Below are positions 1,761 to 56,312 of a stretch of DNA of 64,000 nucleotides, in pieces. The position numbers were made by a program, and so were the translations under genes. Below the pieces are notes generated by a model, which was not told where the DNA came from, made no database searches, and worked only from the letters and a program-made list of their open reading frames with translations. Every line of letters begins with the position of its first letter. Positions within the stretch are counted from its first letter, which is position 1. This stretch comes from Obrimoposthia wandeli (lineage: Eukaryota), in NCBI GenBank assembly GCA_977020255.1, contig CDROCS010006029.1, forward strand, positions 62,001 through 126,000, read 5' to 3'.

Positions 1761-2799
1761 CACTACGACACATTCGGACAAACCCGACGTCAGATGAAAT
1801 CATTTCATTTCAAATAGAATCATTCTTATAAATTTAATTGGGATCATTTTATGAAAATAAGACTGTAAATCGAAGTCATTTTTACAAGTTAAGATTTTAA
1901 CTTTCATAGATTTAAACATTGTATCGGTCTATATCGGCCTTGTTGTCAAATACCATAAAATCACTGACATGTAATTTAATTTTGAGTTTGAACGTGAAAT
2001 AATATATTTTAAAATTATAATATTTATAAAATAAATATATATTACAAAAAATAATTTGAACTTAGAAAATAGAACTTTAATAATATTAACGTAAAAAGTT
2101 ATATTGACATGAAAATATAGTAAAACTTTTTAAATAGTATATCTTACATGCATAATTGTATTTTTTTTTTCCTAAAACAGTTTCATTCGAATTTTTGACT
2201 ATTCAAGAGTATTTAACAAAATTTAATTTGATTTTTTTAGTTCAAATTTTCTAAGTTTGAACAAGTATTTAACAAGCCCATTTTTGATCTTAAATAGCGT
2301 CTTCAAATATAAATCCTGTTAAATAAATAAATTATTGGTGCATTTTATAGCATTATAGTTTTGGTCTTATTGGGCTTCAAATATTAAAAAAAAACCATTC
2401 ACATAGATAAATGACTTTGTTGGGGTTTCTATATGAAACTGTTTTCTAATATAGAACCTCTGAATGGAGGGCCCCAACGTGAGTTCTATAGAAGCAGGAC
2501 TTGTAGATGTTTGTGGCCTACTTAAGTGTTATGCTTGCCTGTCTCTAATTTTATCTGAAGGTTTGTTATTTCTAAATTTGAAGGTCGATAACAACGCTAT
2601 CTAGTTGTAGGAAATCGTTTATTACTAAACACACTAATTTAAACACGTTCTAATTACGTTCTAAAAATAACAATACTATTCCTAAGACTTTCACAAAGTC
2701 TCTACACAAGTGGGAATGAACCACGTATCAATTTTATTTTAGGGTTGGTTGGTTACTAGAGTATTTACTCTAAAATGTGACAAGGTTAAAGTAATAGGT

Positions 2800-3040
2800 T
2801 TTTGGAGAGCTGGTTGCTCTAAAAATAGGGAATGAGTTTAGAGAGCTTGTTGCTCTAAAAATAGGAGTAGTTTAGAGAGCTGGTGCTCTAAAATATGGGT
2901 AGAATATGGGACAGTTAATGCAAAATGTGGGACAATTATATGAAAAATATGGGCAAGTTAATTCAAAATGTGGGACAATTATATGAAAAATATGGGACAA
3001 GTTAATTCAGAATACGGGACAATTATATGAAAAATGGGGA
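2800..3040. repeat. Two short tandem arrays: 3x (T)TAGAGAGCTKGTTGCTCTAAAA hairpin units, then 3x ~43-bp TGGGACAATTATATGAAAAA units
   Basis: GACAATTATA recurs at 2931, 2974 and 3018; AGAGC..GCTCT units at about 2806, 2842 and 2876. Confidence 0.85.
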
Positions 3041-3143
3041 AATTATATATTCTACTTTTCTGCTCACAGTATTAGCAGTATCTTCACGAATTTTTGTTCA
3101 GTACAAATTCAACGAACGCTTTTAATTCTTAACGACTTTTCAT

Positions 3144-3622
3144 TTTCACGCTTTTTACTTTTAACTCAATCTCTAATTCTCAATACTTTCACGCTTTTAC
3201 TTTTTACTCAATCTCTAATTCTCAATACTTTCACGCTTTTACTTTTTACTCAATCTCAAATTCTCAATACTTTCACGCTTTTACTTTTTACTCAATCTCA
3301 AATTCTCAATACTTTCACGCTTTTACTTTTTAACTCAATCTATAATTCTCAATACTTTCACGCTTTTACTTTTTAACTCAATCTCTAATTCTCAATACTT
3401 TCACGCTTTTACTTTTTAACTCAATCTCTAATTCTCAATACTTTCACGCTTTTACTTTTTAACTCAATCTCTAATTCTCAATACTTTCACGCTTTTACTT
3501 TTTAACTCAATCTCTAATTCTCAATACTTTCACACTTTTACTTTTTACTCAATCTCAAATTCTCAATACTTTCACGCTTTTACTTTTTAACTCAATCTCT
3601 AATTCTCAATACTTTCACGCTT
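3144..3622. repeat. Minisatellite, about 11 copies of a 42/43-bp unit (TTTCACGCTTTTACTTTTT(A)ACTCAATCTCTAATTCTCAATAC)
   Basis: CACGC (once CACAC) anchor at 3147, 3190, 3232, 3274, 3316, 3359, 3402, 3445, 3488, 3531, 3573, 3616. Confidence 0.97.
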
Positions 3623-4615
3623 GGCTCTTACCTCCTCCGAATAACCTCAGATGTCGGCCGAACGTTCTGCTCGGTACTCGTTTGATGTGCTGTGGTCGCA
3701 CTGTTCGGTTCTCGTCCTAGGTGACGATTCTGACAGTATCTCCTCGACTGGATTGGCTGCTCTGCTCCTCGTTTTTAGTTGGTCTCTTGGTTGGTCTACG
3801 GATTCGGTTTCAGACTCGATCTCCAATATTTCTTATGTCAGCAGAACGTTCTGCTCGGTTCTCGTTTTTAGTTGTGCTGTTTGGAATAATCGAGTAAGTT
3901 CACTTTTCAATTATTTAGTTTTACCTTCTTCTTCTTTTTCGCTTCTATCTCCAATTAGCTTCGGTGCACGGATTTTATCGACGAGTCTTATATTCTAATT
4001 TTCTGGCGCTCACTTCTGGATTTCTCAAATTTCTATGTGGTAAATTCCACTCTGTTTCTTCGCTCAATTTCTGTGTGGCAATTTCCCCTCTGCTTTTCTT
4101 GCACGAGCTCAAATCGCAGGCCGTTTTCCTGTAACACGATTAATTTATATGTAATTAGCTAAGTGCTTCTTATCGAATCCTGGACGGCTGGTTGAATTCC
4201 CAGCGGTTCTTCTCGATCTACGGCTCCAATACCTGGAAAATTGTATAAATTTGCACTTAATATAAGTGCTCTTACTTCTAGACAGAGCAGACAGAGGCAG
4301 CTTTGATTGTTGCGATATTCTTCTTTCCTTCTTAATTTTTTCTTTTATTGAGTTTTCTTCTTCTAATCAATTTTTCAGTACTTTTCTAACTTCTTTTTTG
4401 GGGCCTTTTGGTAAAGTTTAAAATCCCTTAAATATTCACACACTACACATGACCTTTGTGGTCCTAATATTTTCCCAATAGTTTTATTTTTATAATTTTA
4501 TAATTAATTTTATATTAATTATAACCTTGCTTTCAAGGATTTTTATTTTAATATAAAAATGATTAATTATTTTAATTTTATCAAAACCTAATCCTAACAA
4601 CTTTAATAATGAAAT

Positions 4616-4915
4616 TGTTGGGGTTTTCTTTCAAACTTTTAGAATCCTACTACAGAGGTCCCCAATGTGAGTTCTGTAGCGATAGGGCTTACATATGGAT
4701 GTGGCCTGACTGTTCTAATTTCTGAAGTTTTTTGTGATTTGTTAAAGAGTATGTTTACAGGATAACGTAATTTTTTTTAAAACTATAGTTGCGTTGTGTG
4801 AGGCTGAATTGATAAGCCGGTTAGGCCTAATATGATTTTAGTTTCACAAATAGTCTGGCAAAGCCAAACCATAAATAGGCAAAATCAAGCCGGACTCAAT
4901 CAGTATCGACGGTCT
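4616..4915 (+). mobile_element. Second TGTTGG-family LTR-like fragment
   Basis: Colinear homology with the reverse complement of about 46670-47001 (shared blocks include GAG(A)TATGTTTA, AAAACTAT, AGCCGGTTAG, AAATARGCAAAA). Confidence 0.65.
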
Positions 4916-5373
4916 ATTTTCGTCACAAGACTTTGCATTTTAGTAAATTCCATTATTTTAATTATGAAGAGGTAAATAAATTTGAACCTATTTATATAAA
5001 TTTGAAATATTTTTAATCCAATCACATTCAAGTAAATAATATATTTTTAATTATCAAATGAGAGTTTATAATTTAAAAAATCTGTAACTAATCTTTGCAT
5101 TTCTAAATAAATAGATTTTAAACTTATGTTTTTGAAATTAAAGTAAATAAATTTAAAGACATGTAGAATTATATTATTCCTAAATAATCTGATCACATTC
5201 AAATAAGTTATGTATAATTTTATTTTTCAAATAAGACTTCATATTTTAATAAATCTATAACTTATGATTGTATTTTAATATCACTAAATTTCGTAATAAA
5301 AAATCTAAATTTTTTTAGTTATTTTTTGAAATTAATATAAATTTTTTTTTAATAAAAAACAAAACACGTAAAA

Positions 5374-6640
5374 TTATTTTTTATGAATTATATTGTTTCT
5401 AAAACACTTCACAAAGTCTTCATTGGGATTATCCTCATCGATATCCTTTCGACTGAGAGGTATAGGAGTAAACGGCACTGACTCCTTATATTTCTTTGGT
5501 CGGCCTGGCTTCTTTTTCGGCTGCACCGGTTGCTGTGCAGCAATTGTCGTTCCCTGAGGTTTTGGCAGAAGTTGCCGCAACTTTTTAGAGGAGGTGCAGC
5601 CAATGTCGATGACTCGACGAAGAGGTTGTAGGTTTTGTAGCTTTCCTCTTCAGCGGAGCTTTATTCAGTTTCTCCTCCATCTCACGTTGTAGCTGATGTG
5701 AGACGGCATCCTGCTGCCCTCGCGAATCTGGAAGCATTGCCGGTTGCGGAGTATCCAGTTCCGCCAGAAATTCATCCAATCCAGCTTCATCCCTCTTCAA
5801 ATTCTGGCTGGCTGTTGGCAAAATTTCTCCCCATGTCTCCTCAATTATCTGAACTGGTTCCTGCAACAATAAGACATTAATAAAAGTTTAAAAAATTAAA
5901 ATTAATTAAAAATTTACCTCAATAATAGGATAAGGAACTTTTTCCTGCCGCTCCATCGATACCTCGGTAGAATTGAACAGACAGGATTCACCTTTTTAGA
6001 GCACCTCGTCTTCCGTTGCCCGCTTCATTCGTCTCTGTGGGAAAGGAGAAATGTTTCCCCACGTTTCCTCAGTTAATTGTATTGGTTCTTGCAAAAAACA
6101 TCAATAAAATTGAAACATATAAATAATTTACCTCTATAACGGGAAGGTTTGTCTTATTCAACAACTTAACCTTCTTCCGGTGGACTGTCTGGGTTTTGAC
6201 CCGATTTCTTCGTGGTTTCCTAACCACCGCCTACTTCCTACCAACGGGTAGTTTAAGAGTTGCCTCCTCCATAACTTCCTCCACCAAGTCGGCTTCCTAT
6301 GTGAATAATTAAAATTATTATATAATTTTAAATAATTTACCTTTATATTATCCGGAGTCGCTATGTATTGGTGCTCACTTCTTAGCTCCTCCTGGCTGCA
6401 TTGACTCGTCAAGCACTGTGGTTCTATCAGCCTCTCCACCGTGGTCACTGACAGTGTCTAATCGAGTTGAGGTTTCTGAAAATGAAATTTAAAAAACATT
6501 TGAAATAAATTAAGTCTAACCTCATTCGAATCCTGACTAATATATTGCTGTTTATATTGCTCGTCGGGCCACCGCGGGCCCGAAAAGCACGCCTTGGCTC
6601 TTAGTTGGCTTCACAGGCACTTCCTCACTCTGTGGGAGCA
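5374..6640 (-). pseudogene. Degenerate multi-exon gene with an AT-hook (KKKPGRPKK), adjacent to a Polinton-type terminus
   Basis: Four ~43-58-bp introns with GT donors and AG acceptors, one acceptor mutated. Exons about 6341-6475, 6132-6296, 5918-6088 and 5374-5860. Internal stops and a frameshift near 5585. The 5' region 6550-6725 matches the 42160-42430 region of the Polinton derivative. Confidence 0.7.
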
Positions 6641-7019
6641 CTATGAGATTTTCAATTTTAAAGAGTGTTAAATGTGGATAATTGGTTTTTTGGGTGTTGG
6701 GATGGTAGGGGAAGATAGAAAAACACGTATACGTTAAAATATATAATTTATAAAGTCATATATAGAGATTCAGTGGCAGTGGTATGGCACGGTCGGCACA
6801 TGTGCAGATAAATTGGTGAATTTCAGAAGGTAAATGATAAGCCAGAAATCACAGGGACCTGCTCGAATTCGCTCTTAATAGAAGTCAAGTATCCCATTCG
6901 CTTAATTTTCCAATTTCATTTCCCCACCTTGACCACCTACCATTTACCGCCAGTAAACTGCACTTGTGCAGTTGAAAGGTATATACACATCTCAGGACAT
7001 GTATAGATTTTTTTCACTA

Positions 7020-7139
7020 CACACACAGGCACGAAATTTCACTCTACACACACAAAACGACATGCACGGATTGAAAGGACAGTGGTAGCTCCCCTCGTGG
7101 GGGGAGGGGGGTGGATTAGACCGGACTAATCCACCTACT
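7020..7139. mobile_element. Polinton/Maverick terminal inverted repeat, family A (ends ...CCACCTACT)
   Basis: Matches the TIRs at 40262 and 42516, which flank a pPolB fragment and carry a 6-bp TSD. 5'-AG...CT-3' termini are typical of Polintons. Confidence 0.8.
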
Positions 7140-7199
7140 GACAGAGATATACTAATTTTATTGGCGTATTTGTCAGTCAACATTCTCAAGTTAGCCAGA

Positions 7200-7615
7200 A
7201 GTCAAAGACAAGGTGATGGCATCTTAATTTGGGGAATGTTCGATGGTTTTGGTCATTTACGTATACATGTTGCTGGAAATCAATTAAAAGCTAAGAAATA
7301 TGTCAAAATGTTAAAGGAAAAAAGTCACACCTAGTGTAAGAAATGTGGATTATGATATTATCTATCAACATGAAAATGTATTGATACATACATCAACAAT
7401 TACAAAAAGATTATCTGATAAATAAAAACATTCATAATATCCAAAGGCCAGCTATTAATTCAGATCTTAACTCGATCAAGCATTTATGAGGAATTTTATG
7501 TTTCATGGTATATGGAAGTAATCAGCAATATAAAGATAAAGTGCTTTCACATCGATCACAATCGATTACTGCTTACTGTTATAAAAAGAGAAGGTGGATC
7601 GACAAAATATGAGTT
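7200..7615 (+). mobile_element. Tc1-like transposase remnant
   Basis: Translated fragments GDGILIWGMF, PAINSDLNSIKHL*GIL..VY and RLLTVIKREGGSTKY resemble the Tc1 motifs WPxxSPDLNPIENLW and VIxxxGGxTKY. Confidence 0.75.
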
Positions 7616-8430
7616 TGTTTAATCTACCGTATTTTATTGTTTTGATTTTTTATTGAAGTAAATGTGCTCTAATTTTTATGTTACATTAAATTTCATTAAT
7701 TTTAATAAAACAGACTTGTAACTTATTATAACTACCATCATTATGATTAGATTTTTCCCATTTAATAAATTTGTTCAATACTAAGTTCTAAATAAAAAGA
7801 TATATCAAAAGAAGTATTTTTTTAGATATTGATGTTATAAACTGCATATGTATGTATACATCTGATAGAGGGCGCTAAGATTTCATAAAGTACTGATAAA
7901 ATAGCAAAAAGAAACCGATAGAAAGAAAATCTAGTTTACAATTAAGTACAATTAAACAAACACTATAAACCAAAATCAATAAAAAATTGTTTATTTCACA
8001 GAAAAGCAACTCTCATCTTATCATCCTGACCTAAAGAGCAACATACCAACTTAACCCATTAAGAAATAAATGAAACTGATATTCTCATGAATTACGTAGC
8101 TGCAATGAAATAGTATAAATATTCTAATTTGAATTCAGAATAAAAGCACAATAACTACTTCAAAGGCATATAACAAATTCATAATATATGTAATCATTCA
8201 CATGTTAAGAATTCGTGTAAATATTTAATCATAGTAAATGCATTTAATCATCTTTTGAACAATTCGTTTCTCATAGTGAAGCATTCAAATATTCACAATA
8301 CTTGTTAGTCTAGTAAAATATATAACAATTAAACACAATTAAAAGTTACATTATTTAAAATCCAGTGCCAATAATATTTGTAAGTACCCTTCATAAAGTA
8401 AACACATATTTCATAAATAAATCAAAATAA

Positions 8431-8508
8431 CTTCCGAAGTTCTTTCCCACAAATGCGTGTCACTTTGGTAGATACTTGCTGTCAAACTCCTTCTTCAGAT
8501 GAGCGGCG
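8431..8508 (-). pseudogene. LC8 dynein light chain pseudogene fragment
   Basis: Reverse complement reads [24 protein letters not shown] (W to stop). 5' part missing; more diverged than the three intact copies. Confidence 0.85.
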
Positions 8509-9238
8509 TAAAGAGCCTTCTCGTTTCATCTCTTGATAATTTATCTTATTTTTTATTTGTGTAGCAATTTATCGATGTTGTCTCTTTTCGTAATGCTAGT
8601 GAATTGATCTCTGAGTGCTCTTCTTTCAAGCTCTTCTCTTAAACTGATATTGCTCTGCTCTCCCAATCTTCTGGCTTCTTGTCATCCTCCACTGCTGACT
8701 CTGCCTATCTGTGTTGCTGTGTCGGTGTATCTCACTATAACTCTTCTGTTTTTCTAAGTTGACTCTGACTAAAATAGTCAGCAACATCACCTGGGATCAA
8801 TAAATTCCATTTTTTGAGCTAATGAACTTTACCATAATTTCCACAATTCCCATTTCTTTTACTTTACTGTATTTTTATCTAATTTAATTTTTGAATTTAG
8901 TCTTCAAATTGCCCTTGACCAGGACTATAAACATAGTCAATTCAATTAACTGTTTTAATTTAGTCGTCCGTTTCTGGAAATTTGCAAATATAAAGTCGTC
9001 GTTGATTTAATATTATTAACTATTAAAAATAATTAAATAAATATCCATGTTGAGATTATTGCCCCGCATTGGTAATAATTGTTTGTACCAATAAGATTAA
9101 AATAAATATTTCAAAATAGTGAGCAATATGTGCGTTATTTTAATACTTTAAATATTACTACTTTAAATAAATGTACACAAAACAATATAAGATCATCAAA
9201 AGCAATTTATTTCACAGGAAAGTTTCACAGCTTTCATA

Positions 9239-9981
9239 TTAGCATCCGGACTTGAAGAGCAATATGCCGACTTGGCCAAGGAAGAAGTAAATGAAGCAGG
9301 TCTTCTCGTGGCTGACATAGCTGTAAAAATGAAAGAATTCAATGAGCGCTAATGTAGGTTTATTACATAGACATCAACAATAATTAATGTGTTAACACTA
9401 CATATAGAAATACAAATAATCGAATTCATTATTTTTCGAAGTTTTTAAGTATATTTGCTTTTTGACCAATATTAGTTCATATTTATTAACTGTTTTAGAC
9501 AAGTTTACAATACATTAAAATAAAATGTACCGTATAAAAATACTGACTAATGAAATTGAATAATTAATAATAAATTATCAAAATTATGTTAACATTTCAT
9601 GATTTATTTTAATTAGAATTCAATTTACTGATAAAATGAATCCTCTTAATTAACAATGATTCACATTCGATATTTCTAATGTTTGACATATATTTTAATT
9701 ACCTAACCAAGTATTGATTTAGTATTAATATTTTACGTGTATAATAAAAAAATAAATGCAGATAAAGTCAAGTACCTTCCAAAGTTCTTGCCCACAATTG
9801 CATGCCATTTGGATTGGTACTTGCTGTCAAACTCCTTCTTGAGATGAGCGGCGATGTCCTTCTCTACGCCGTACTTCTTGTAAGCGTAAAGTGCCATGTC
9901 GATGGCTTCCATTTGCATCTTTCTGGTCATGTCGGAGTCTGCGATCTTGGCATCTTCACGCTTCAGGTTCATGGCACTCAT
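9239..9981 (-). CDS. DYNLL: Dynein light chain LC8 family protein, copy 2 (exons 9981-9776, 9320-9239)
   Basis: Near-identical inverted copy with intact ORF and the same intron. Confidence 0.95.
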
Positions 9982-10380
9982 TTTCGGATACTCTTACTGT
10001 GGATTGTGATTATAATTGCTGATCCACTACCGGCATTATATACTCTGGATTATTATTCGAAATCCGTGACTCGTGTGCACACATTCACTGCCAAATTGAG
10101 AATCGGTTTTGTTAGTTATTAAATTCACATTTTCCTGTGAATTATGAATTTGTATGATCCAGTAGCTTATCTGTAAATGAAAGCCGAGTTTAATTTATCG
10201 CTGTTGTGCATTTCTGAGTAAAGCGGCCATTGTTGGAAACTGATAACTAGCAAAACCGATTCTCAATTTGGCAGTGAATGTGTGCACACGAGTCACGGAA
10301 TTCGAATAATAATCCAGAGTATATAATGCCGGTAGTGGATCAGCAATTATAATCACAATCCACAGTAAGAGTATCCGAAA

Positions 10381-11123
10381 ATGAGTGCCATGAACCTGAA
10401 GCGTGAAGATGCCAAGATCGCAGACTCCGACATGACCAGAAAGATGCAAATGGAAGCCATCGACATGGCACTTTACGCTTACAAGAAGTACGGCGTAGAG
10501 AAGGACATCGCCGCTCATCTCAAGAAGGAGTTTGACAGCAAGTACCAATCCAAATGGCATGCAATTGTGGGCAAGAACTTTGGAAGGTACTTGACTTTAT
10601 CTGCATTTATTTTTTTATTATACACGTAAAATATTAATACTAAATCAATACTTGGTTAGGTAATTAAAATATATGTCAAACATTAGAAATATCGAATGTG
10701 AATCATTGTTAATTAAGAGGATTCATTTTATCAGTAAATTGAATTCTAATTAAAATAAATCATGAAATGTTAACATAATTTTGATAATTTATTATTAATT
10801 GTTCAATTTCATTAGTCAGTATTTTTATACGGTACATTTTATTTTAATGTATTGTAAACTTGTCTAAAACAGTTAATAAATATGAACTAATATTTGTCAA
10901 AAAGCAAATATACTTAAAAACTTCAAAAAATAATGAATTTGATTATTTGTATTTCTATATGTAGTGTTAACACATTAATTATTGTTGATGTCTATGTAAT
11001 AAACCTACATTAGCGCTCATTGAATTCTTTCATTTTTACAGCTATGTCAGCCACGAGAAGACCTGCTTCATTTACTTCTTCCTTGGCCAAGTCGGCATAT
11101 TGCTCTTCAAGTCCGGATGCTAA
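10381..11123 (+). CDS. DYNLL: Dynein light chain LC8 family protein, copy 3 (exons 10381-10586, 11042-11123)
   Basis: Intact ORF and splice sites; divergently oriented to copy 2, ATGs about 400 bp apart. Confidence 0.95.
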
Positions 11124-11430
11124 TATGAAAGCTGTGAAACTTTCCTGTGAAATAAATTGCTTTTGATGATCTTATATTGTTTTGTGTACATTTATTTAAA
11201 GTCATAATATTTAAACTAGTAAAATAACCCACATAATGCTCATTATTTTGAAATATTTATTTTATTCTTATTGGTACATGCAATTATTACATTTATAGGG
11301 AATAATCTCAACAACCTTTTTATTTAATTTTTTAAGATTATAATATTAAATCAACGACGACTTTATATTTGCAAAGGTCCAGAAACGGACGACTAAATTA
11401 AAACAGTTAATTAAATTATTACATTTACAG

Positions 11431-23459: not shown

Positions 23460-25310
23460 ATTTGAAGAAAAGGATAAGGATTTAAAATTCAGAGATTGGG
23501 CAAAATGCATACCCGTGGAATTCAGGGTGTATGCTGATTTTGAGTCAATTCTAGCATTGCACGATCAGTATGAGAGTATTCACCCACCGGCTTCGGCAGG
23601 ACTACTATTCTTAGGCCCCAATATTACACAGTATCATAAAGTGTCCGGCCCAAATTGTATTTTAGATTTTATGTTAAAATTAGAAGAATTAGGAACTACA
23701 ATTGTCAAACCATGGTATGATCGTAATGCTCATCAAGCAATGATACACCTATAACTGAATTTGAGGGGATAAGTCTTCAAGACTATAATGAGGTTCATAC
23801 ATTTTGGGAGAATAATTGTCGAAATCTTCTAGATTATATGCTTTTTTATATGAAGTTAGACATTTATCCTTTAGCTGATGTGTTTGAGTCCTTTCATGTA
23901 AAATCTTTAGCAGAAGATGGGCTAGATCCCATGCATTTCTTTAGTTTAACTGGTCTTTCATGGGCAACGACAATAAAAACTCTTAATATTAATATCGAGT
24001 TACTGCAAAATCCCACAATGTATCAAATGTATGATTATGGTATACGCAGTGGAATGACTTTTGTCAACAAACATCATGTTGTCAAAAATCAATCCACGGA
24101 GATTCTGTACATCGTCATTAATAATTTGTATGGGTGGGCGCTTACTCAACCTCTACCTCATGCCAACTTTAAGTGGCTTTATGATGAGGAAGAGTTGAAT
24201 AAGTTGATGACAGCTTTGGCTACTGTTGATACAGTTTCATCAAACGTCGGCTATTTGGTTGAGGTTGACTTAAAAAGCACTCCCAATGTGCATGATAAAT
24301 TAGATGATCTTCCAATAGCACCTGTTCATCAATGTCTACCTAAATCAAAGGTTAAGAAATTATTGTTAATACATGATGACAAGTTGAATTATGTGGTGCA
24401 TTGGCGGCTTCTTCAATTCTACTTAAAGTTGGGAGCGAAAGTCACTTGAATTCATCGTGCTATAAGCTTTAGTCAAAACTTTGTGTTTAAAGACTATATT
24501 GAGAATAATTCTAAAAAACGTAATTTGGCCACTAGCAAATTCGATCAGGATTTTTACAAGTTAAAAAGTAATAGTCTCTTTGGAAAAACGGTAGAGGACT
24601 TGCGGAAACGTATTTGTCTACGGTTTTGCAATGATGAGCGTAAACAAATAACATATACTAGCAAGTACAACTTCAAGCGTAGTTTTACAATTGCAGATGA
24701 CTTGGTAGCAGTGTTATTAGGAAAACAGAGTATTTGTCTCGATCGACCGAGTTATATAGGTCAAACGGTTTTAGACATTTTCTAAACTCAGAATGTACGA
24801 GCTTTAATACATAGAATTAGAGAAATATCGACAAGAATTCAATTGTGAGTTCAAATTCACAGCTGGGGCCACTGACTCTTTCTTTTTAGAATGTAGGAAT
24901 GTAAGTTTAGATAATCAATTATTACCGGCCATGTTTTAAGGATAACTTACTTGACACCCATAAATATCTCGTTAACCATCCTCTAAACTCTATGAGTTTA
25001 AAGGATAGTATCGGGAAATTTAAGGAGTAAAGCGAGGGACAGGTTTCGTATGATGATTGTATCTCCTACTCCCTAAATGCTACAGTTTACATGCATATAA
25101 TAATACATATTCAATGTGAGCATAGGGTGTGGGAAGAAACAATCTTACACATGAGGCCTACCCGAATATGATACTGGGTGTATTGAAAGCGTTGAGCAAA
25201 CTAGATTTATTTCAAGAGCCCATCAACTGTATTCCCATAAATCAACAAAATCGCTTTGAGTAGTAATGACGACAAGCGCTTTCGGGTAGAAAAGAACGCT
25301 AGCCTGGACA
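23460..25310 (+). pseudogene. Protein-primed family B DNA polymerase (pPolB), disrupted
   Basis: Motifs VYADFESIL, KLDIYPLADVFE, INNLYGWALTQPLP, KSNSLFGKTVE.LRKR, RPSYIG, GATDSF (from GDTDS), IGKFKE, LLPKCYS and LSSNDDKRF. Stops, frameshifts and an internal deletion near 23750. Confidence 0.92.
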
Positions 25311-25570
25311 CTTCCGAATTTAAACGGTTTTCATTTTTTGATTTTTTTTTTGTTTAGTTTTTTAAAATTTTAGATCCCTATGGCACCTTGACTCTAACTT
25401 TTTGTTATTTCAATACTTTTTAAGTTGGGCTTTATCTTTGCTGACAGATCTTGTTGTGATATTGTTTTTAATAAATGTATTAAAAAAAATTGTCTTATGT
25501 CTTTTATTATTTTATCTTTTTATTTAAATTTTGTAGGGTTTTAAAAAAAATCAAAATAAAACATTTATTA

Positions 25571-25915
25571 TTATAACACATTAATTGTTTTGCAACGATA
25601 ACCATAAAATACATAAATGTCCACAGTTTCTCGTCGCAGGATCCTGATATTGTATCTTGTTGTAAAATACTCTTCTTCGTCCTTTTTGAATAATCGAAAC
25701 AAGTTTGTGTGGATAATACATTGCAAGTAGATCAAATAATGTATTGTCCACTCTCTAATATAAATAGCTATCCAATGTTCTCCTGGTAAATTCGAAGTAT
25801 GAGTATTGATAATGTAACCTCCAGATTGAAAAAATGGAATCATATCAATAGGATAAACTCCATTGAATTTATCACCAATGACCTTCTCTGCTGATTCTTG
25901 TACTTGTACTGAACT
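25571..25915 (-). pseudogene. Adenain-like (adenovirus-type) cysteine maturation protease
   Basis: FNGVYPIDMIP..IINTHTSNLPGEHWIAIY and, after a frameshift, IQYQDPATRNCGHLC. Confidence 0.85.
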
Positions 25916-25961
25916 AAATAAAAATTAATAAATATAAATTTAAAATACTTCTTTCTTCATT

Positions 25962-27112
25962 TTATAATATGACAGTTCTGTTTTTATTGATTTGTATTTC
26001 CGAATCAAATACTCCGTAAATAAGCACCGTAGTAGAATGTGTTAAAGCTGCATTGAACTTAATTTCTAGTCGTAAATTTCTTTCCTTTGGTAGTTGGCAT
26101 TGGTTTATATCAAAGTCTTGTGCCAAAACAAATGTGAAGACCGGACAGCTACATTAAAACTCAGTGAAAAAAATACCAGTGTTTATATTTTTATCTAGTT
26201 GACCCAAATATCGAATAATAGATTGAGTATAAGCCAAAACATAAGCGTTACCTTCGAAATCTGTTTTATATGTTTCGCGATAATCAGTATTTCTTGAAAG
26301 TGTCACTGAACCTACATGAAGATTGTCAAATTGAGTTGCACCTGTCGTATAATTTCCTAGATACTTTGCAGTTTTTTGAAAAGAAATTAAAACGAATTTC
26401 GGTAATCTTACATGACCAAAATTTTTATCCTTATTAAAAGCTTGTGTACCCGTACCTAAAGAATAAGATATAAGTTTAGTTTCTCTAATAGGATAACAAG
26501 CATTGTTTTTTTCCATTCCTATATTATGTGCCATTAAAACTGATTGCTCGGTTTTAACTCTTCGAACTTATAATTTTGCATCCAAAATATCAAGACTAGG
26601 TTTTAGAACGTCTGTGCTAATCAAAGAAAAATCCCCTTAATTACGTTTCAAACGAAGATGTACATTAACACCGGGAATTAAATATTTCGGTTGTTCAAAG
26701 AAATTCAATCTCATAGACCCACACATTTCGTAAGCCTTACATTTTGCAATCCATTCTTTGCGAGTTGCATCCGTTTTATCATATCCAATGGTTGCAAATT
26801 AGTATTTTGAGTATCATTACTATAATTCAATAGACTTTCAATCAAAGCCTTATGAGCATAGGAAGAATTTCCACCTTCAATTTTGACATTATTAAGAGTA
26901 ACAATGGCATCACTAAATAAAGAATTAAAGAGATAATTTACAGGTGTTACATCTGCATTTTCATCTAAATTAGTACCATTAAATTCTAAATCGGTTAAAG
27001 TGGTTCCTGAAACTGAGTTAACTAGGAATATTTCTTCAAAGGAAGCATTATCTACAACTACTTGTGGAAGGGGTTTATCAAAAATACACAATTCGGTTTT
27101 GGCGCAACTCAT
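25962..27112 (-). pseudogene. Polinton major capsid protein (double jelly-roll), frameshifted
   Basis: N-terminal MSCAKTELCIFDKP; internal YAHKALIESLLNYS and ETKLISYSL..LPKFVLISF; C-terminal FTFVL..NLRLEIKFNAAL..IYGVFDSEIQI. Confidence 0.85.
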
Positions 27113-27199
27113 TTTGCAAATATTGTTCCTTCAACTGTCTTACGTTTGTTTATATTGATTTTTTGCTTCTTTTTACATTTAAATCCACTACTTTTTTTA

Positions 27200-27490
27200 T
27201 TGGCTTTTATTTGATTTACGTTTTCTAATCAAATTAGCAACTTCAGGTAAAACATTATCAAGTTCATCAAGTGCATGCTTCTTAAAAGTTGGTATTAGTT
27301 TATTGTCATTAGATGAAAGGTAGTTCTTTCCTAATTTTCATACAAATCGCCCGAGTCTCTTTAAAAGAGGAAAGGCAAATCTACCTAATGTTCTAAGCCA
27401 GCCAGATCCATATTGTTTACCAACAAAATATGGTAATTCTCCACCTTGTTGGCTTTGACTATAAACTTCAATTATTGCCGGATTCGCCAT
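27200..27490 (-). pseudogene. Small Polinton virion/core-like protein (QxGG..YFVG..GSGWLRTLGRFAFPLLKR motif)
   Basis: Glycine-rich then amphipathic motif typical of the small gene next to MCP in Polintons; one internal stop. Confidence 0.6.
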
Positions 27491-27494
27491 TTTT

Positions 27495-28365
27495 TTATTG
27501 TATTGTTAAACTTGTCTTGGTTCCGTACGTGAAATCTATTAGTTGTCCGGAATCATCTCTAATATTTACTTCAATATTGTTTATAGAAAAGAGAGCAACT
27601 GGAAGATACATTGGTTGATCTATACACATACCGATAACGTCCCCATCTTTAGTTTGATTTTTAGATATCCATATTGTTCTCAGCGAGTTTATCATCAAAT
27701 GAAACCCGTTTTATATTGCTCTTTATTGTAAACGTAAATTTTCTATTTTTTAATGTCACACATTTATTCAAATATTCACTACATTTCTTCTGTATTAATT
27801 TACATAAATTCACTTCACTATATATTTTATAATCTTTTGAAAACATTTTCAGTTCCACTACATCCTTTGGTCTCGTTTCAAGTAACAACACTTTTGCTAC
27901 TCTACCAAGAACATTTCTAACCGATTAAGATGAGACAATATCCAATCTCTTCATACCTACTACATGTTCACTACCAAAACCGAATTGAAGAGCTTATATT
28001 AAAGATTAAAATGTCAATTGAATAAGTTGAATATATTTTAATTGATTTTTAAATCTGAATTTGTTATTTTCATATATTACTTTCACTTCTTTATCTAGAC
28101 AATTGTAATAGAATTTTCCTTTACTATCAAACCCGATCACAACTTCAGTTGTTTTTTCATGATAAAATTCTTTTGTAAACGAAATATGTGAGTTTTTTCT
28201 GATAGTAATTGGAGAATAATAAAAAGAAAATTCTGTTAAAGCCGCTTCCCCTTCTCCTTGGAGATTTATAGGATTTTCCCAATCGATAATAAAGCTACTA
28301 GCGTCATTATTTGGTTGAGTCTTCGGGCATATGTTACTAGGTAAAACCATATACATAGACTTCAT
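27495..28365 (-). pseudogene. Polinton minor capsid (penton) protein, frameshifted
   Basis: MYMVLPSN..PNNDASSF..PINLQGE.EAALTEF at the N-terminus and YLPV..INNIEVNIRDDSGQLIDF at the C-terminus. Confidence 0.85.
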
Positions 28366-28448
28366 ATTATATTAGATGCTGATATCCAAGTTGGGTTTGA
28401 ATAACCATGCCATTTAACAAAGTATTGTTTATGTTTTGAAATAATTGT

Positions 28449-28778
28449 TTATGAACGTGTTGCAGCTATAATACTACTGATAATTGAAGCAACAACTGGA
28501 ATAACAGCCCCTATGAAACCACCATTCTGTTTAAGAATAATATTTCATTTCCTTTTTTTACTTTTTACATTAGCAATATATAGAAGAGTTTTTCTATATT
28601 TCTTTAATACATTTTTCCGTTTTCCAACTTTTACTCGACCCAAAACTATATTATACAAAACTTCCAATAAATAATCTACAACAAAAGATGGAAATGCTTT
28701 AAGAATAATCATTCTCTTATGAGAAGAGGCTTTGACCAAAGCTTTAAAATAGGGTATGATTATTTGTATTTTCTTCAT
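28449..28778 (-). pseudogene. Small basic Polinton protein ending in QNGGFIGAVIPVVASII
   Basis: LLEVLYNIVLG..LKKYRKTL.. followed by a frameshifted QxGGF hydrophobic tail, as in the conserved small Polinton gene near the penton. Confidence 0.6.
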
Positions 28779-29949
28779 TTAAAAAAAAGTTTAATTTGAA
28801 TATTGTTTATATTCGAAGCCATTTAAGTTTTCTTTTCTAACTACAGATTTGATTAATTATTCACTTCTTTTTTCTTAAGGATTTTTTTTGAATTCTTTGA
28901 TTTCACTTTACGTTTACGTTTCACTATCAACTTCTTAAAAGGCATTGCAAATTTATTTTTTATAATTGTTCTCTATTTGTTTATAAACAGTTACTCCCTA
29001 AAAAACAATTTTCATTAAGAAATAAAATTCTGATAGAACTGAAATTTGGCAAGCAAGTTGTGATCGATGTCTGGCCACCATTTCCAAAGTTTCATCCACT
29101 AATATTATAAACTTCCGGATACATTCTCCCGCAAAGCCGGTTTGACCAGCATTTATACATTTCTGAAACTACATATTATTAATAATAAACCATCAAATTA
29201 TCTATGTATTCACGGAGTCTTTTGAAGTGATTTTCAAAAAGGTAAAAAATGATTTTAACGCTTTGGCCATTACCCACAAAGAATACTTCGTTCATTGTTA
29301 ATATTTTATTTAAATAACATTTTCAAAATATCTTGTTCTCGGTAAGATTTAAGAATCGTTTTATTTATATTTTACTTTTTTAGCTATTTAGGATTATTAT
29401 TTCTTCAGCAAATTATAGCTTCATTATACATACATATTGAAAGTTGTTTTTGTTAATAGTAAACATAACAACATTTTTAAACTCATTTTAAACAATCTAT
29501 TTACGCAACAATTTATCAAACATGGATCGGAATTTGTTTAATCAATTTAGAGAACAGTTCAACAAATATTTACAAAAAATATATATAAATCTCGACCATA
29601 ATGAATCCAGATGTCTGCGAATAAAGATGAGTTCAATTTCTTAGAGGAATCATTTTATATCAAGATTCATAATATCAATAGTCTGTTTATTTTTCGATTT
29701 GAAAAATTAAAATTTAAAGTAATTATCAGGATTTGTTTATGAATTATAAGATTTAACAGACTCTTGTTAATATGTTCTTCTGTGAAAATGAAAATATGTT
29801 TAAAAAATATGGTATTTTAAAATTTCGATTTTTACGATAATTGGAAATAAAACTTTGATTGATTTACGTTTAAACAAACTAAAACATTTATTATACTAAA
29901 CTTATTTACATTTACACAAATTTTAAATTTATATAAATTATTATTTATA

Positions 29950-38900: not shown

Positions 38901-41900
38901 ACAAACTGATAAAAGCTCTGCAGTTTAGATAGAGTTGGCTCAGGTTTGTTTGTATTCTTATTAGTTTGTGAATTGTTAAATTATTGTACTATTGCCACTT
39001 TTAATTCCATTAAATGTGCAAGCAGAGTTTAACGAATTTATATTTCAAAACTCGACTTGCGCTATAAACGAAAAATTTCGAGTAGTTTTTATACGGACTT
39101 CTTCTGCATAAATATTCTTAACAGCCTTCCAAAATATAACTCGAAATTAATCTTTTACATGTTTCTTTGGTTACAAAAATTAAATAGAATAAAAATAATT
39201 ACATTTATATTTCCATGACATACATTAAGCATCTCTCTTAAATATGTTTAAAATTGGGGTCGATCCTCTATTGGATCACTGGGTCTTAATTGAGTTACTA
39301 TTTAAAATTATTTTAAAATGTTTACATTTTCAAAATAAATCCCTTAATCATAACAGATTATTTTGTAAGTGAACATTTAAATTCGACACATATTATTCAA
39401 ATTTTCATAATATCTTAAATATTATTTTCATTTTTTTAATAACTCCGAAATATTGATATTTTTTCTGATAATAAATGAAAATTATTATAATTACCTTAAT
39501 TAATAAAATAAACCTTTCGTTAAATTTATTCTGAAATATTTTCAGTTTCAAAATTTTATTTACACGGAAATTAAATACATTTTTTTGAATTTTGAAAATA
39601 TGAAATTTCAGTTTCGATCTTATGAAAATAGATTTTTTTTTGAAAAATCCTTTCAATGTTATAAGTTAATAAGTTAACCAACGGTACAGTTTAGATGCTG
39701 TAACATTTTCAATTTACATTGCAAAACAGTTATTCAGAGGGCGACTGGTAGTCTTGCAGTTTATGGTAATAAAGGTGTTTACTGTTACTAATTCTAATAA
39801 TTGTATGAATTCGAAAAGAAACTGGCTCAAAAGCGTGAGCAATAGTCTCTAAAGGTTCCATGAAGCATGAATTGTGTAAAGCAGCAAAAATGCTCATTCA
39901 GTGTATAGCCAACATCCAATAGGTTTGAGTTTGGTGTTTGGTCTCTGACTAACATTCCCTGAAACCGTCTAAGACCATCTACTTCAATTCCTAGCATGAA
40001 ATAAAATAACTTGATTAACTTACCTCCAGGTCGATCCTCATTTATGCAGCTCTTGACGATGGTGCTAATTTCCTCTTCAGTGGGACACTGACCATTTAGT
40101 CTCAGAGCGTACCCAATTTGGGCAGCGGGAATCCAGTTACGCTTATGTGTGTCCAGTGAGGAGAATATCTCATTGTAAACTGAATATTCACATTATTTTT
40201 ACAAAGTTTTACAGTATTGAATAATTTTTTTGTCGGGTCAGGGTTTTTGTTAATTAAAAATAGTAGGTGGATGTGTCCGGTCTAATTCACACACCTCCCC
40301 CGGGAGGCTACCACTATCCTTTAAAACCGTGCATGAGTGTGGAGAGAAATTTCGTGTATGTGTGTGGAGTGAAATTTTAAAAAAAATTGAAAATCAACGA
40401 ATGGGGGGAGAGGGGTTTCAGACATATATAAAGAAGAATTTACAGAATACAATTCTAGTCTAATGAATTTCTAATTTCTAACAAAGACATGAATCTAATT
40501 GGTTAATATAACTAAAGCATATGTTTTGATAGGACTAAATCCATATTAAAAATCAAAATTAATTGGAAGACATATCATTCAATTATAATAGGTTTGCAAG
40601 ATAATTACAAGAAATGTGCAATAAAAAAGTAGGTTCAGACATATATAAAGAAGAATTTACAAAATACAATTTTAGTCTAATGAAACTCGTAAATATAAAT
40701 TATAAAGGTATAATAAAATATGATGTTTCGTACTTACCATCAATCAATGGAAGTCGAGACAATATGTGAAAAGGTTTGACAATTTCACAGTTGATATTTT
40801 CCCCACAGGTTAGTTTTTATTTTATTTTCATATTGAATTCTTTTAGGAAATTGTTGTATTATGGGATGCAAAATACCAATGCTTGGGTTCAATTTACCAT
40901 TTGGAATTCGAATCACTGCAATACAATCAATCACAATTTCGACTAATCTAGGGAAACAAATAAATATTTTTAAAATTGCAGAGAAAATGAAAGAAAAATG
41001 CATGTTTGAACCAGAAAATTTTCCTGCTCTCAGTTAGTAGATAGAAGGATGGAGTCTAGATCACATACCCCCTCGCGAAAAAGGTCGAACTCAGTTTTGA
41101 GTTGTCTCACCATAGGGGTGGGGGTCAAGTGATCTAGTCTCCACCCTTCTTATGGTCGACCAACATACATAATGATCATGGTCGGTTATAGATGAAAGGG
41201 TCAGAGTCAGTTTTGACTTGAAGGTTTTAAGGTATGGTCATGACCATCTATGATCGGCCAACATACCCAAGGGGTTGTGGTCGTCCATAGATAAAAGGGT
41301 CAGGCAGAGTTTTGATTTGAAGGTTTTAAGGTATGGTCATGACCGTCTAGGGTTGGCCATCCCATCTAAAGGGTTATGGTCGTCCATAGACGGGCATGAC
41401 CATACCTTAAAACCTTCAAGTCAAAACTGACTCTGCCCCTTTCATCTATCACCGACCATGACCCTTGGGTATGTTGGTCGACCATTAGAAGGGTGGAGAC
41501 TAGATCACTTGACCCCCCCCCCTATGGTGAGACAACTCAAAACTGAGTTCGACATTTTCACGGGGTAAGTGATCTAGACTCCATCCTTCTACCTACTGAC
41601 GTTTGATGAAACTGTATCAACAGTAGCCAAATTTGTCATCAATCTATTCAACTCTTCCTCATCACAAACCCACTTAAAGTTGGCATGAGGTAGAGGTTGA
41701 GTAAGCGCCCACCCATACAAATTATTAATGTCGATGTACAGAATCTCCGAGGATTGACTTTTGACAACATGATGTTTGTTGTCAAAAGTCAATCCACCGC
41801 GTATACCATAATCAAACATTTGATACATCGCGGGATCTTGCAGTAACTCGATTGCCGTTGCCCATGAAATACCAGGTAAACTAAAGAAATGCATGGGATC

Positions 41901-42995
41901 TAGCCCATCTTCTGTTAAAGATTTAACATGAAAGGACTCAAACACATCAGCTAAAAGATAAATGTCTAACTTCATATAATAAAGCATATAATCTAGAAGA
42001 TTTTGACAATTATTCTCCCAAAATGTACGGGCCTCATTATAGTGTTAAAGAGTTATACCCTCAAATTCAGTTATGGTGGGATTTCTGTGGTATTTTCTAA
42101 ATCTGCGAAGGTTTTCTCAAATTTATACGGAAAAATCTATAGGCCATCTAAGGGCCAACACGTGCTCTTCGGGCCTGCAGTGGCCTGACGAGCAATACAT
42201 ATATACAGGGTTAAATGCATGACCAATTACACAGTCAGTGTTCCCAGCTTCGGTTAATGATAAGGAGACTTAAGGAGACACTGCAGGCCCGAAGAGCACG
42301 CGTTGGCCCTTAGATGGCCTCTCAGGCACTTCCTCACTCTGTGGGAGCACTATGAGATTTTCAATTTTAAAGGGTGTTAAATGTGGTTAATTAGTTTTTA
42401 GGGTGTTGGTTGGAAGCGAGATAGAACAAATCACTTCACACACATGCACAGTTTTAAAGGACAGTGGTAGCCCCCCGGTGGAGGGGTGTGAATTAGACCG
42501 GACTCATCCACTTACTAAAAATAAATAAATTTTATTGAAAAAAAAATTTAATTATTGATGTTTTAAATTATTCAATAAATGTAATAGTGCTTAGAAAATG
42601 TAATTAATAAATACATAAATATATAATAAAAATGCAGATAATATTGAAAAAAGTTTATCTTTATAGTTATTTGATGATATTTATTTTAAATGTTTATGCT
42701 GTGAAAAGCCTTTGAACACCCATTAAAGTTTCAACATAATTTTAAAATTCAATCTGTAACTTTATTTACAATTTTGTTGTATTTATAACTTTACACAGAT
42801 TTCAGTCGAAATAAAATAGATGAACAAATTCAACAATACAAGTAAAAAGCTAACTTTTCTCTTCTTCACGGGTGAACGTTATTTTCTGTAAATGAAAGTT
42901 CCAAAGATCGTTAAAAGTTCAATAAAATATTAACCAACTTCTTCGTCGTCACCTTCATTTTCCTTGTTAGTAGTTGTATTTTCTTCATCAGACAT
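32940..42995 (-). CDS. Calmodulin/myosin-light-chain-like EF-hand protein with Lys-rich tail (exons 42995-42935, 40179-40024, 35148-35051, 33194-32940; about 189 aa)
   Basis: Phase-compatible GT-AG exons give ..YNEIFSSLDTHKRNWI..IGYALRLNGQCPTEEEI..EAFQQFDPKDSGLIDESELRSALANLGEPL..GKVSYSDF..KKKSGKK..GKKKKK*. Exon 1 is the least certain. Confidence 0.85.
35665..35737 (+). pseudogene. tRNA-derived sequence (tRNA-Ala TGC-like pseudogene or SINE head)
   Basis: Box A-like TAGCTCAGTGATAGA, CT-TGC-AA anticodon loop, degenerate box B (TGATTCAATT); acceptor stem does not pair. Confidence 0.45.
37580..38564 (-). mobile_element. Mariner-like (DD37D/DD41D-type) transposon remnant
   Basis: PYHSLGVQKLHEED..FAEDML; KATVWVAV..TLTEET..LQNWLLPQL; frameshifted PEGVPPN. 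TA-flanked terminus CAGGGTATTTCAT at 38564. Confidence 0.65.
41036..41597. mobile_element. 562-bp fold-back element made of family-B Polinton termini
   Basis: ~215-bp inverted arms (41036-41252, 41385-41597), roughly 90% identical by eye, ending AGTAG...CTACT; no matching TSD. Confidence 0.8.
41598..42120 (-). pseudogene. Second pPolB fragment
   Basis: MKLDIYLLADVFE..DINNLYGWALTQPLPHANFKW, clearly homologous to about 23750-24250; ends exactly at the family-B terminus. Confidence 0.9.
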
Positions 42996-44144: not shown

Positions 44145-45829
44145 TCCTACACAAAGAAACATTAATGAAGACAACACATAAATTAATATGAACAGTATTT
44201 AAAAAAGAGTTTCAAATTTGTCGGTAAACATATTATTAATTTATAAAGTTACGTCCTCGATGAAAATATTACTATGAAAATTTAAATTAATATAGGGATT
44301 AGATAATGTAACAGTAATATAAAAATATTTATCCAAAAAGAAAATACCTTACTACGGAGATAATTATAGTGCTAACACATACTATTATTACAATAAGACT
44401 TGATTTTCAAAATCTTCCTTGTTTAATATTCCAGCTTATCCTTTAAATAGCTTAGAAACAAAAAAAAACAAATCTGTCAGAATTATATTCAAGAAAAGAA
44501 AATGCAAGTACAAGTGAACATTTAATGAAGCTTCATTGGCTAGAATCCAGGCGGTTGTAGTGAGCATGTATATTTGTCTTAGAAGCAACGATGATGTCTA
44601 AAGGTTTGTTAAGAAATTCTCAAACAACAAACAAAGTGATGGAAGATTGGAAATTTACTGTTTCCCGAGCTTATCGACTTTGAAACCTTGTATTTGTATG
44701 AATGATATCCAATATTTGCCTTTAGGCATCTTTTCAGCAAAAATGTCATAAGCAAAATATCCATTGAGACGTATTGAGATATTCCATAGTTCTTCATCTA
44801 AAATTGGAACACTCAAATAACCTAGGTTATCTCTAAAAGCCGGAATGAGATCAGTTTCAAACTGGAAAGAATTTCCTTCGTATACATAATCAGGTATGTA
44901 AAATCCCAAAATATTTTTCAATTGATCAATTTCAGATGTAGTTAAAATTTCAATTAGATATTTATTTTCATCGAATTCTTAACTCGTATAATTTGATATA
45001 TCTTTAATATATTACATGGTTTTCCTTTTCAAATTCTTTTCGGATAATAAATTTTTCTTAAGTATCTCAGAATATGATCCATTCTAAAATAAAGAAACTG
45101 ATTAAAATAACAATGTTTATAAAAAGCATATGAGATACAAATATTATGAAATAGAAATAAATAAAACTGATTAAAATTTATTACATGAAAAATGAAAGAA
45201 ACATGATAAAAGAAATAATTAAAATATAGGGAAATAACATTCAATTTCCCAAGAGCGTAATTTACCCAACGAATATAGAAGTATATCATGCAAATCATAT
45301 CCTTTGATATTATAAAACACAATGGGAATGCGTGGTGTTCAGGGAGTCGACGACCAAGGTTACAGAGGTTACACGCCGCTCAAGGGTATCATCCGTAATA
45401 TTATCGTGGTCCCTGACTGACTTAGAATCTACACACAAAAAACACACGTTATACTAGATTTAAAATTGACCCAGTCTGCAGTCATAATCATTACTTGATG
45501 AGCATTATCTTCAAACCACGGTTTGATGGTTTTTGTTTCTAATTTCTCTAATTTTAACATAAAATCAAAAAAAACAATTTAAATCGGAAAATTCATGATA
45601 GTCTGTTAATGATATTGAGGTCTAAGAATAATAGTCATGTCAATTCCAGTAGTTAAATACTGTCATGCTGGTCGTGCAAAACTAAAATGGATTCAAAATC
45701 AGCATACACCCTAAATGTATTTGCACAATCCCTAAAATGTATATCCTTATTTTTCGGTATGCTATATAACATATTGTCCTCAAATTAAAATATCTTAAAT
45801 AAAAACTATGTTTTAAAATAAATTGAGAC

Positions 45830-55264: not shown

Positions 55265-56312
55265 CAGGGGTGGGAAAACTACGGCCCGCAGGCCGCATGC
55301 CAAAGGTTTTTATGTGGCCCGCCAAGTTATATACGCATGTTATTTTGGGACAAAAAGAAATTGTGAAGAAATTGAATAAATGATGATCTTGAGATTTTTT
55401 ATTTTTTATTTTTGAAATTTTTTTAATGTTATAAACTCTTTTCTTTTAACTTTTGTTGAAATTTAAATTGATGTTAAAATAATTTAAATTGATCTCGTTA
55501 TTTTATTTGTTTATTTGCTCATGAAATATACCTGGAAGTGAAAGTCTTTCAATTGAAACTTAAACTTTTAGCCAAGCAGCTGAATGAGCAAAACTTTGTT
55601 CATTTTCCTCTGTTGAAAACACGAGCGGTTACACAAGCATTATCAGACAAGTACTGTTCCCAGATGATGGCTTTAAAAGAGGAATTTATCAGAAGATTTG
55701 CTGATTTCAAGGCAATTGAAGGACAGTTCGATTTGCTCAGCTCACCTTTTACCTGTGACATTGAAACAGCTACTGAAGAACTGCAGATGGAACTGATTGA
55801 TTTACAAGCTGACAACTCTTTAAAGAGGATGTTTGAAAGTAAAACACTGGTCGAGTTTTATGCATCTCTGTCCTCAGAAAAATTTCAAACTCTGAAGAAA
55901 TTTGCAAGAAAGATGTTTGTGTTGTATGCATCAACTTACATTTGTGAGCAGACTTTCTCCATAATGAAAGTTAACAAGTCAAAGAACAGATCTCTTCTCA
56001 CCGATTCAAATCTTCAGTCAGTGTTAAGGATCAGCACAACCAACTTGACACCTGATTTTAACAAACTGGTAAAAGACTGCAGTCAGATGCATCATTCTCA
56101 TTGACATTGTTCTGTTACTTATTGAGTTACTTTGTTTTTCAAATAAATGTGCTTCATGTGAAGTTTCTACTTTAAAATATTAATAAAAAAAAATTTATAT
56201 ATTTTTCTTTAAAAACCTTTTTATTTCATTTTAACTAAATATACTATGCGGCCCTTTAAATTTTTGAAATTTCTGAATGTGGCCCTTGAACTGAAAAGTT
56301 TGCCCACCCCTG
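55265..56312 (+). mobile_element. Internally deleted hAT (Charlie/SPIN-like) element, 1048 bp, 8-bp TSD ATCTATTT; open 188-codon C-terminal transposase frame at 55538-56104
   Basis: TIRs CAGGGGTGGGAAAACT / AGTTTGCCCACCCCTG; TSD at 55257-55264 and 56313-56320. ORF contains YASTYICEQTFSIMK..KSKNRSLLTDSNL..LRI. Confidence 0.93.

Follow-up and report, generated by a model that had tools for sequence, protein, structure and literature searches.

A 2,255-bp single-copy remnant of a Polinton in a predicted intron of Obrimoposthia wandeli, and a preferred right-end breakpoint in its family

Results

The locus

The stretch of O. wandeli DNA analysed here (the window, 64 kb) contains an element of 2,255 bp, bounded by family-A-type Polinton termini at 40262 (plus strand) and 42516 (minus strand), within the predicted intron of a calmodulin-like EF-hand gene. 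The features of the locus are as follows.

42939–42995, 42855–42885 and 40024–40179, minus strand: predicted exons of the EF-hand gene
40180–42854, minus strand: predicted host intron, phase 1, of the calmodulin-like EF-hand gene, with matching GT/AG borders and an EF-hand-like protein
40256–40261, no strand: left 6-bp target-site duplication (TSD), AAAAAT
40262–40418, plus strand: family-A left end (TIR 40262–40347 and subterminal sequence up to a G-rich tract), matching the left end of L009
40417–40467, plus strand: templated insertion of 51 bp in the left deletion junction, copied from 40634–40684 with 2 mismatches
40471–41035, plus strand: family-A DNA holding the 5' part of the TBP-like gene and the region upstream of it (reference 1484–2052), cut by the B element
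41036–41597, no strand: fold-back of a family-B Polinton comprising the two ends of a single B insertion (arms 41036–41376 and 41377–41597)
41598–42137, minus strand: internal fragment of family-A pPolB (reference 9163–9723)
42141–42271, minus strand: local inversion of family-A DNA, spanning an older deletion junction at about 42208–42211
42272–42278, plus strand: short filler at the right breakpoint of the inversion, repeating adjacent letters
42279–42516, plus strand: family-A right end (TIR 42431–42516)
42517–42522, no strand: right 6-bp TSD, AAAAAT

The earlier note had placed the element in a host intron, and the gene model agrees with this, predicting a phase-1 intron with GT/AG borders that would measure about 0.41 kb without the element. 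The DNA flanking the element is single-copy in the 1.35-Gb genome. In a single sample, contigs were continuous over both element borders at a depth of 46–48; no empty-site joint was present among the joints listed for this sample (310 more lie outside them), and no junction-spanning piece of bridging length was found among the sample contigs at 99% likeness. Elsewhere in the window, other repeats occupied 172–1415, 8883–10126 and 10236–11290 (1.2-kb inverted repeats at 98% and a near-perfect fold-back of 1,055 bp that has a 109-nt spacer), and an ORF with a hAT dimerisation domain (PF05699) lay at 55493–56104.

The parent family

Elements of the parent family A are 14.7–16.8 kb long and carry TIRs, a 6-bp TSD, an rve integrase, pPolB and an A32-like ATPase. 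Their TIRs, about 90–110 bp in length, begin with an AGT-type repeat, a terminal motif that marks Polinton/Maverick elements. One copy, C2100, served as a ruler only, to give reference positions. It encodes pPolB (PF03175, E = 9.6e-9), an integrase (PF00665, E = 1.5e-12), a TBP-like gene (PF00352, E = 7e-12) and a packaging ATPase whose match to Pox_A32 (E = 8e-5) fell just under the curated cut-off; its putative capsid and protease ORFs fitted by size and position only and had no Pfam match. In family A, a CATATATA box is located about 110–230 nt upstream of the TBP-like gene (window 40837–41035; L115:1887–2318). A first look returned 21,235 candidates for the whole element and 1,207–8,722 for its parts, figures that are not copy numbers.

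Additional family-A fragments were present in the window at 4913–7139 (right end), 23470–28999 (pPolB-to-integrase block) and 44745–45782 (left-end genes). At L205:7201–9611, a 2,411-bp TSD-bounded derivative of family A sits within another A copy, and the host copy is continuous across the TSD.

Termini and target-site duplication

Both family-A TIRs of the 2,255-bp element are flanked by AAAAAT, at 40256–40261 and 42517–42522, as the earlier note had reported. The probability of such a pair by chance was 0.0006–0.015 depending on counting: 0.0006 and 0.004 from the local composition of 200-nt and 40-nt flanks, respectively, and 0.015 from the frequency of AAAAAT in the right flank. Ten A copies were followed outward from their left ends, and in two of the four near-full-length copies with both termini in range (16,817 and 14,733 bp) the 6-bp TSD was exact. 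The 6-bp TSD is a signature of family A, found on long and minimal copies alike. The two TIRs differ at 10 of 86 nt, and each lies within the six best matches of the other without being its best; a variant found in only 5 of 149 distinct TIRs is carried on both ends. Very likely, the AAAAAT duplication is real and both ends derive from a single insertion.

Interior anatomy

Read against the ruler, the left half of the element consists of the left end to about position 156, a 51-bp copy of 1649–1699, reference 1484–2052 and the 562-bp B fold-back; the right half consists of 9163–9723, an inverted block (9719 to about 9787 joined to right-end sequence) and the last 238 bp. Parent DNA was missing in three deletions of about 1.3, 7.1 and 6.7 kb, about 15 kb in total. 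The first lies at the left deletion junction, where the templated insertion is found, and the third at about 42208–42211, where the right side of the junction coincides with a breakpoint hotspot of the family (see below). Since the inversion spans this right-hand junction, the 6.7-kb deletion occurred earlier than the inversion. Bases 42279–42320 are repeated in inverted orientation at 42141–42182 with 1 mismatch in 42, and an inversion accompanied by such a duplication and by filler looks like a template switch.

The earlier note had listed a pPolB scrap, a nested fold-back, the 5' stub of an AT-hook gene and unrelated DNA as the interior content. The first two were confirmed: the pPolB fragment matched PF03175 (E = 1e-4, below the curated cut-off), and the fold-back lies at 41036–41597. 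The other two were not, as every internal piece traces to the parent or to family B and none is unrelated; 40471–41035 is family-A sequence and 42141–42271 is inverted family-A DNA. The gene fragment is TBP-like (PF00352, E = 7e-6, above the cut-off), whereas the sole AT-hook-like motif of the window is at 5517 and none is coded in the right-end piece.

The junction duplications (templated insertion and inverted repeat) contained 3 differences in 93 nt. In trees of the TBP and pPolB segments, the branch of the element was 0.038–0.051 against medians of 0.015–0.025, and in the right-end segment it was short (0.025 against 0.040). As judged from these branch lengths, which are biased toward best matches, the element appears to be relatively old among the copies sampled in two of the three segments.

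The family-B fold-back

The B fold-back stands in exactly for about 7.1 kb of family A that holds the ATPase, the integrase, the predicted capsid/protease region and the 3' part of pPolB. Its two arms were mutual nearest neighbours among 49 ends (7.9% divergent, against at least 10.2%), so recombination between two separate B insertions is disfavoured. A B insertion with its own TSD was rejected, as the flanks (TCAGTT and GACGTT) differ and correspond to parent positions separated by 7.1 kb; where both ends of a B copy were located, a 6-bp TSD within 1 mismatch was present in 3 of 3 cases (10 loci examined). Because each B terminus adjoins A sequence exactly and the two points of contact are separated by 7.1 kb in the parent, the loss was likely made by the B integrase, through two-site integration or an adjacent deletion. 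No second two-armed B fold-back was found in the best 40 of 4,388 candidates.

B-type ends were often located inside or against A sequence (L049, L052, L100, L104, L208), and targeting of A by B is possible. L208 contains a 1.0-kb B-type mini-element without a TSD, and L284 and L285 carry tandem B termini on the same strand, spaced 112 bp apart in L284.

Search for further copies of the unit

Mobilisation of the unit in trans, as proposed in the earlier note, would be expected to leave further copies elsewhere that share its internal junctions. None was found in the top-40 lists or in 298 loci, a search that was exhaustive for exact patterns alone. The left junction had no second copy among the best 40 of 1,207 candidates, and the right junction occurred once genome-wide, both exactly and with up to 2 mismatches. 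Both junctions directly tested are unique in these searches, the outcome that the earlier note had linked with deletion after insertion, and the 2,255-bp unit is not amplified. It is the single-copy remnant of a 15–17-kb family-A Polinton and, taken alone, is ordinary. The sole near-match to the right junction, C2457, breaks 11–13 nt away and lacks a TSD; such a near-match is expected because of the family hotspot. Common ancestry with C2457 was rejected, as closer relatives were present in each of three segments (C2457 ranked 23 of 39, 60 of 62 and 45 of 70).

The 298 family-A loci (redundant loci included; a few hundred sampled out of thousands) yielded 114 distinct junctions from deletions measuring 150 nt or more, with a median deletion of 775 bp. 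By BLAST borders, 53 of these overlapped, 48 contained filler and 13 were blunt. Junction sharing between unlinked copies was not clear in any case among the 114; four pairs lay within 12 nt, of which one fell inside one locus, another on one contig, and the remaining two differ in junction sequence. Hotspot junctions are mostly outside the 114, the ruler copy being of another right-end subfamily, and were inspected by eye. The traits of abortive gap repair are present, namely kept ends and TSD, and unique junctions with microhomology or filler.

A breakpoint hotspot near the right end

The hotspot is a 31-nt interval about 280 nt (260–300 nt) from the right terminus. When 39 right ends were chosen independently, through an anchor placed 68 nt to the right, 12 broke within this interval (−5 to +25). 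The others broke in the 63 nt to its right (7), at 26–100 (1), at 101–200 (5) or past 200 (14), and three of the seven on the right combine a small downstream deletion with a break at the hotspot. In a second set, 20 of 38 copies lost homology at most 25 nt from the hotspot point, a proportion that is biased, the query having begun at the hotspot, and that includes two duplicate rows and some breaks that are short local deletions. Breakpoints elsewhere in the element were spread over its whole length.

The right-hand junction of the 2,255-bp element falls at the hotspot and directly adjoins the left side of the TGTATATATG motif, which is similar to the CATATATA box that precedes the TBP-like gene. 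A strong hairpin as the cause of the hotspot found no support, since folding of the 3' region was modest (z = −1.2 to −2.1, one window +1.4). Nor did an origin of the junctions by splicing, since the breaks scatter across about 25 nt and are not located at an AG.

Two copies, L210 and L222, carry an A terminus directly against the hotspot, an arrangement that duplicates the last ~300 bp in tandem and may represent integration into the hotspot. Three deletion junctions (L092, L094, L217) fell within 15 nt at reference 1777–1791, just upstream of the TBP-like ORF; this may be a second hotspot in a region for which the sampling was enriched.

Minimal elements

An exact pattern joining the left TIR to the hotspot motif had 20 matches genome-wide, at 19 distinct sites. 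The reversed control pattern had none genome-wide, nor had control joins about 110 nt downstream or 35 nt upstream of the hotspot. A right TIR completed 17 of the 20 into minimal elements of 286–367 bp, whose TSDs were exact over 6 bp in 12 and within 1 mismatch in 16. All left breaks were in or just past the C-rich tract of the TIR, so that about 16.5 kb was deleted at 19 distinct sites while ~33–55 nt of the left end was spared. Including the 2,255-bp element, 26 distinct TSD-bounded derivatives of 286–8,964 bp were recovered, and TSD-paired short copies made up 6 of 38 in one set and 4 of 39 in the independently anchored set.

The minimal elements did not cluster when 84 right ends were placed on a tree (19 changes, against 19.8 with shuffled labels), although this tree was star-like, with 6 of 80 branches starred and bootstrap not settled, and could hide small clades. 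The only identical pair, L267/L276, has identical flanks too; L261 and L277 have low-complexity junctions 1 nt apart, and one subfamily variant was present in 7 of 22 minimal elements against 2 of 30 intact ends. The satellite or defective tier suggested in the earlier note therefore holds in part: short TSD-bounded derivatives exist and are non-random, but they are one-off deletions and no amplified satellite was seen.

Discussion

Family A has repeatedly undergone deletions, each a one-off that spares both ends, and a single right breakpoint is strongly preferred. We favour, with a probability of roughly one half, the reading that the 2,255-bp element was cut down in place by repeated interrupted repair synthesis, one stop of which fell at the family-wide hotspot. 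DNA synthesis from the right end would stall shortly after passing a GC-rich stretch and a TATA-like box, and the free 3' end would rejoin further left by short homology or filler; rejoining that favoured the C-rich tract of the left TIR would give the minimal elements of about 0.3 kb. By analogy with P-element deletions, this synthesis may belong to gap repair by the host once the integrated element has been excised or broken, and the shrunken products would be dead ends, rarely or never mobilised again. The hotspot, the kept ends and the lack of clonal spread were counted for repair in place, which is favoured because the element carries at least five serial changes without relatives holding a subset of them and is a relatively old copy in two of three segments.

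Alternatively, though less probably, the defective genomes were made before integration: a protein-primed polymerase on a free linear copy would drop off about 280 nt in and jump left, and a helper integrase would insert each product once, so that the 2,255-bp unit, or most of it, was inserted already shrunken. The breakpoints are sharply one-sided and both termini of the minimal elements are exact to the base, as this account would have it, and the template-switch-like inversion with its 42-bp inverted duplication fits as well. Moreover, the rearrangements could predate integration, since neither the junction duplications nor the B arms can be dated apart from the insertion. However, the unit requires at least five serial events with no relatives sharing a subset of junctions, and the unlinked loci show no clear junction sharing. 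In the form that Polintons shed a cloud of defective genomes by a fixed mechanism, with synthesis that begins at the right terminus giving out at a defined site about 280 nt inward and a helper integrating minimal products of ~40 nt of left TIR and ~280 nt of right end, the idea is tentative.

Ordinary post-insertion decay by host double-strand-break repair, with the hotspot explained by the fragility of a promoter-like site or by sampling, seems improbable. The spread of the other internal breakpoints along the whole element and the median deletion of 775 bp are what decay would give, and an intron location could favour shrinkage, but the hotspot persists with an independent anchor and is absent at two control positions, and losses of about 16.5 kb that spare the TSD but only ~33–55 nt at the left end recur at 19 distinct sites. 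Least credible is mobilisation in trans of a clonal tier of satellites or MITEs, in which deleted masters would have been amplified and their junctions would have diverged later by slippage in the C-rich tract: the minimal elements are alike in size and have TSDs, a few low-complexity junctions lie 1 nt apart (L261/L277) and one variant is enriched (7/22 against 2/30), but they are unclustered on the tree, the only identical pair shares its flanks, and the tested junctions of the 2,255-bp unit are unique.

With its TIRs, 6-bp TSD, integrase, pPolB and ATPase, family A resembles Polinton/Maverick elements, for which the accessible text of previous studies gives TSDs of 5–8 bp (10.1101/2023.08.22.554363) and describes mostly defective copies, fossils with stops and frameshifts, in numbers up to a few hundred (PMC8097293, 10.1101/2023.08.22.554363, PMC3014272). 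One of these three papers, on the anole, states in its available portion that nonautonomous copies are apparently absent. Family A differs from the Polintons described in those excerpts in its thousands of candidate copies, its derivatives down to 286 bp and its breakpoint hotspot. A Maverick expansion is indicated for Dugesia in 10.64898/2025.12.11.693146, and the comparison also took in related work (PMC6431247, PMC4779613, 10.1101/2024.01.15.575659, 10.1101/2025.02.07.637071).

The 2,255-bp unit and the minimal elements share with MITEs that they are short, non-coding and bounded by TIRs and TSDs as in the autonomous partner, but no amplified master was found among them: the unit is single-copy, and the minimal elements are polyphyletic with different junctions. 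Termini are kept and the interior is lost in the defective-interfering genomes of linear DNA viruses; the family-A derivatives are similar in this respect and in the template-switch-like inversion, but are known as integrated copies alone. Abortive gap repair is also familiar from Ac/Ds. In P elements, according to the portion of the source available, unique internal deletions arise from interrupted gap repair with mostly random breakpoints, and deleted elements can be mobilised again (10.1101/729889). Family A is like them, as far as that portion describes them, in its kept ends and TSD, unique internal deletions and filler at junctions, and unlike them in its fixed breakpoint and in that no re-mobilisation was seen; Polinton excision was not observed here. 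With P-element breakpoints described as mostly random, something further must account for the fixed position on the right.

Among the papers listed by full-text literature searches, supplements aside, none described a breakpoint hotspot of Polintons or TSD-bounded Polinton mini-elements of about 0.3 kb. Kapitonov and Jurka (2006) and Repbase reportedly include non-autonomous Polintons, and short Polinton derivatives as such may therefore not be new; what may be new here is the hotspot and the tier of minimal elements.

To our knowledge, the exit of Polintons from chromosomes and their entry into them have so far been a model, never observed. The recurrent one-sided breakpoint and the many TSD-bounded copies of about 0.3 kb with both termini kept are a fossil record of that entry or exit. 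Derivatives that arose in place would argue that Polintons are excised or broken and that the gaps are then repaired, much as for cut-and-paste transposons; with an origin before integration, they would define both the minimal cis signals and a tier of defective genomes. Should the minimal elements prove to be helper-integrated, the minimal cis-acting unit for Polinton replication and integration could be mapped from them, and they would represent a defective-interfering-like tier of an animal virus-like transposon.
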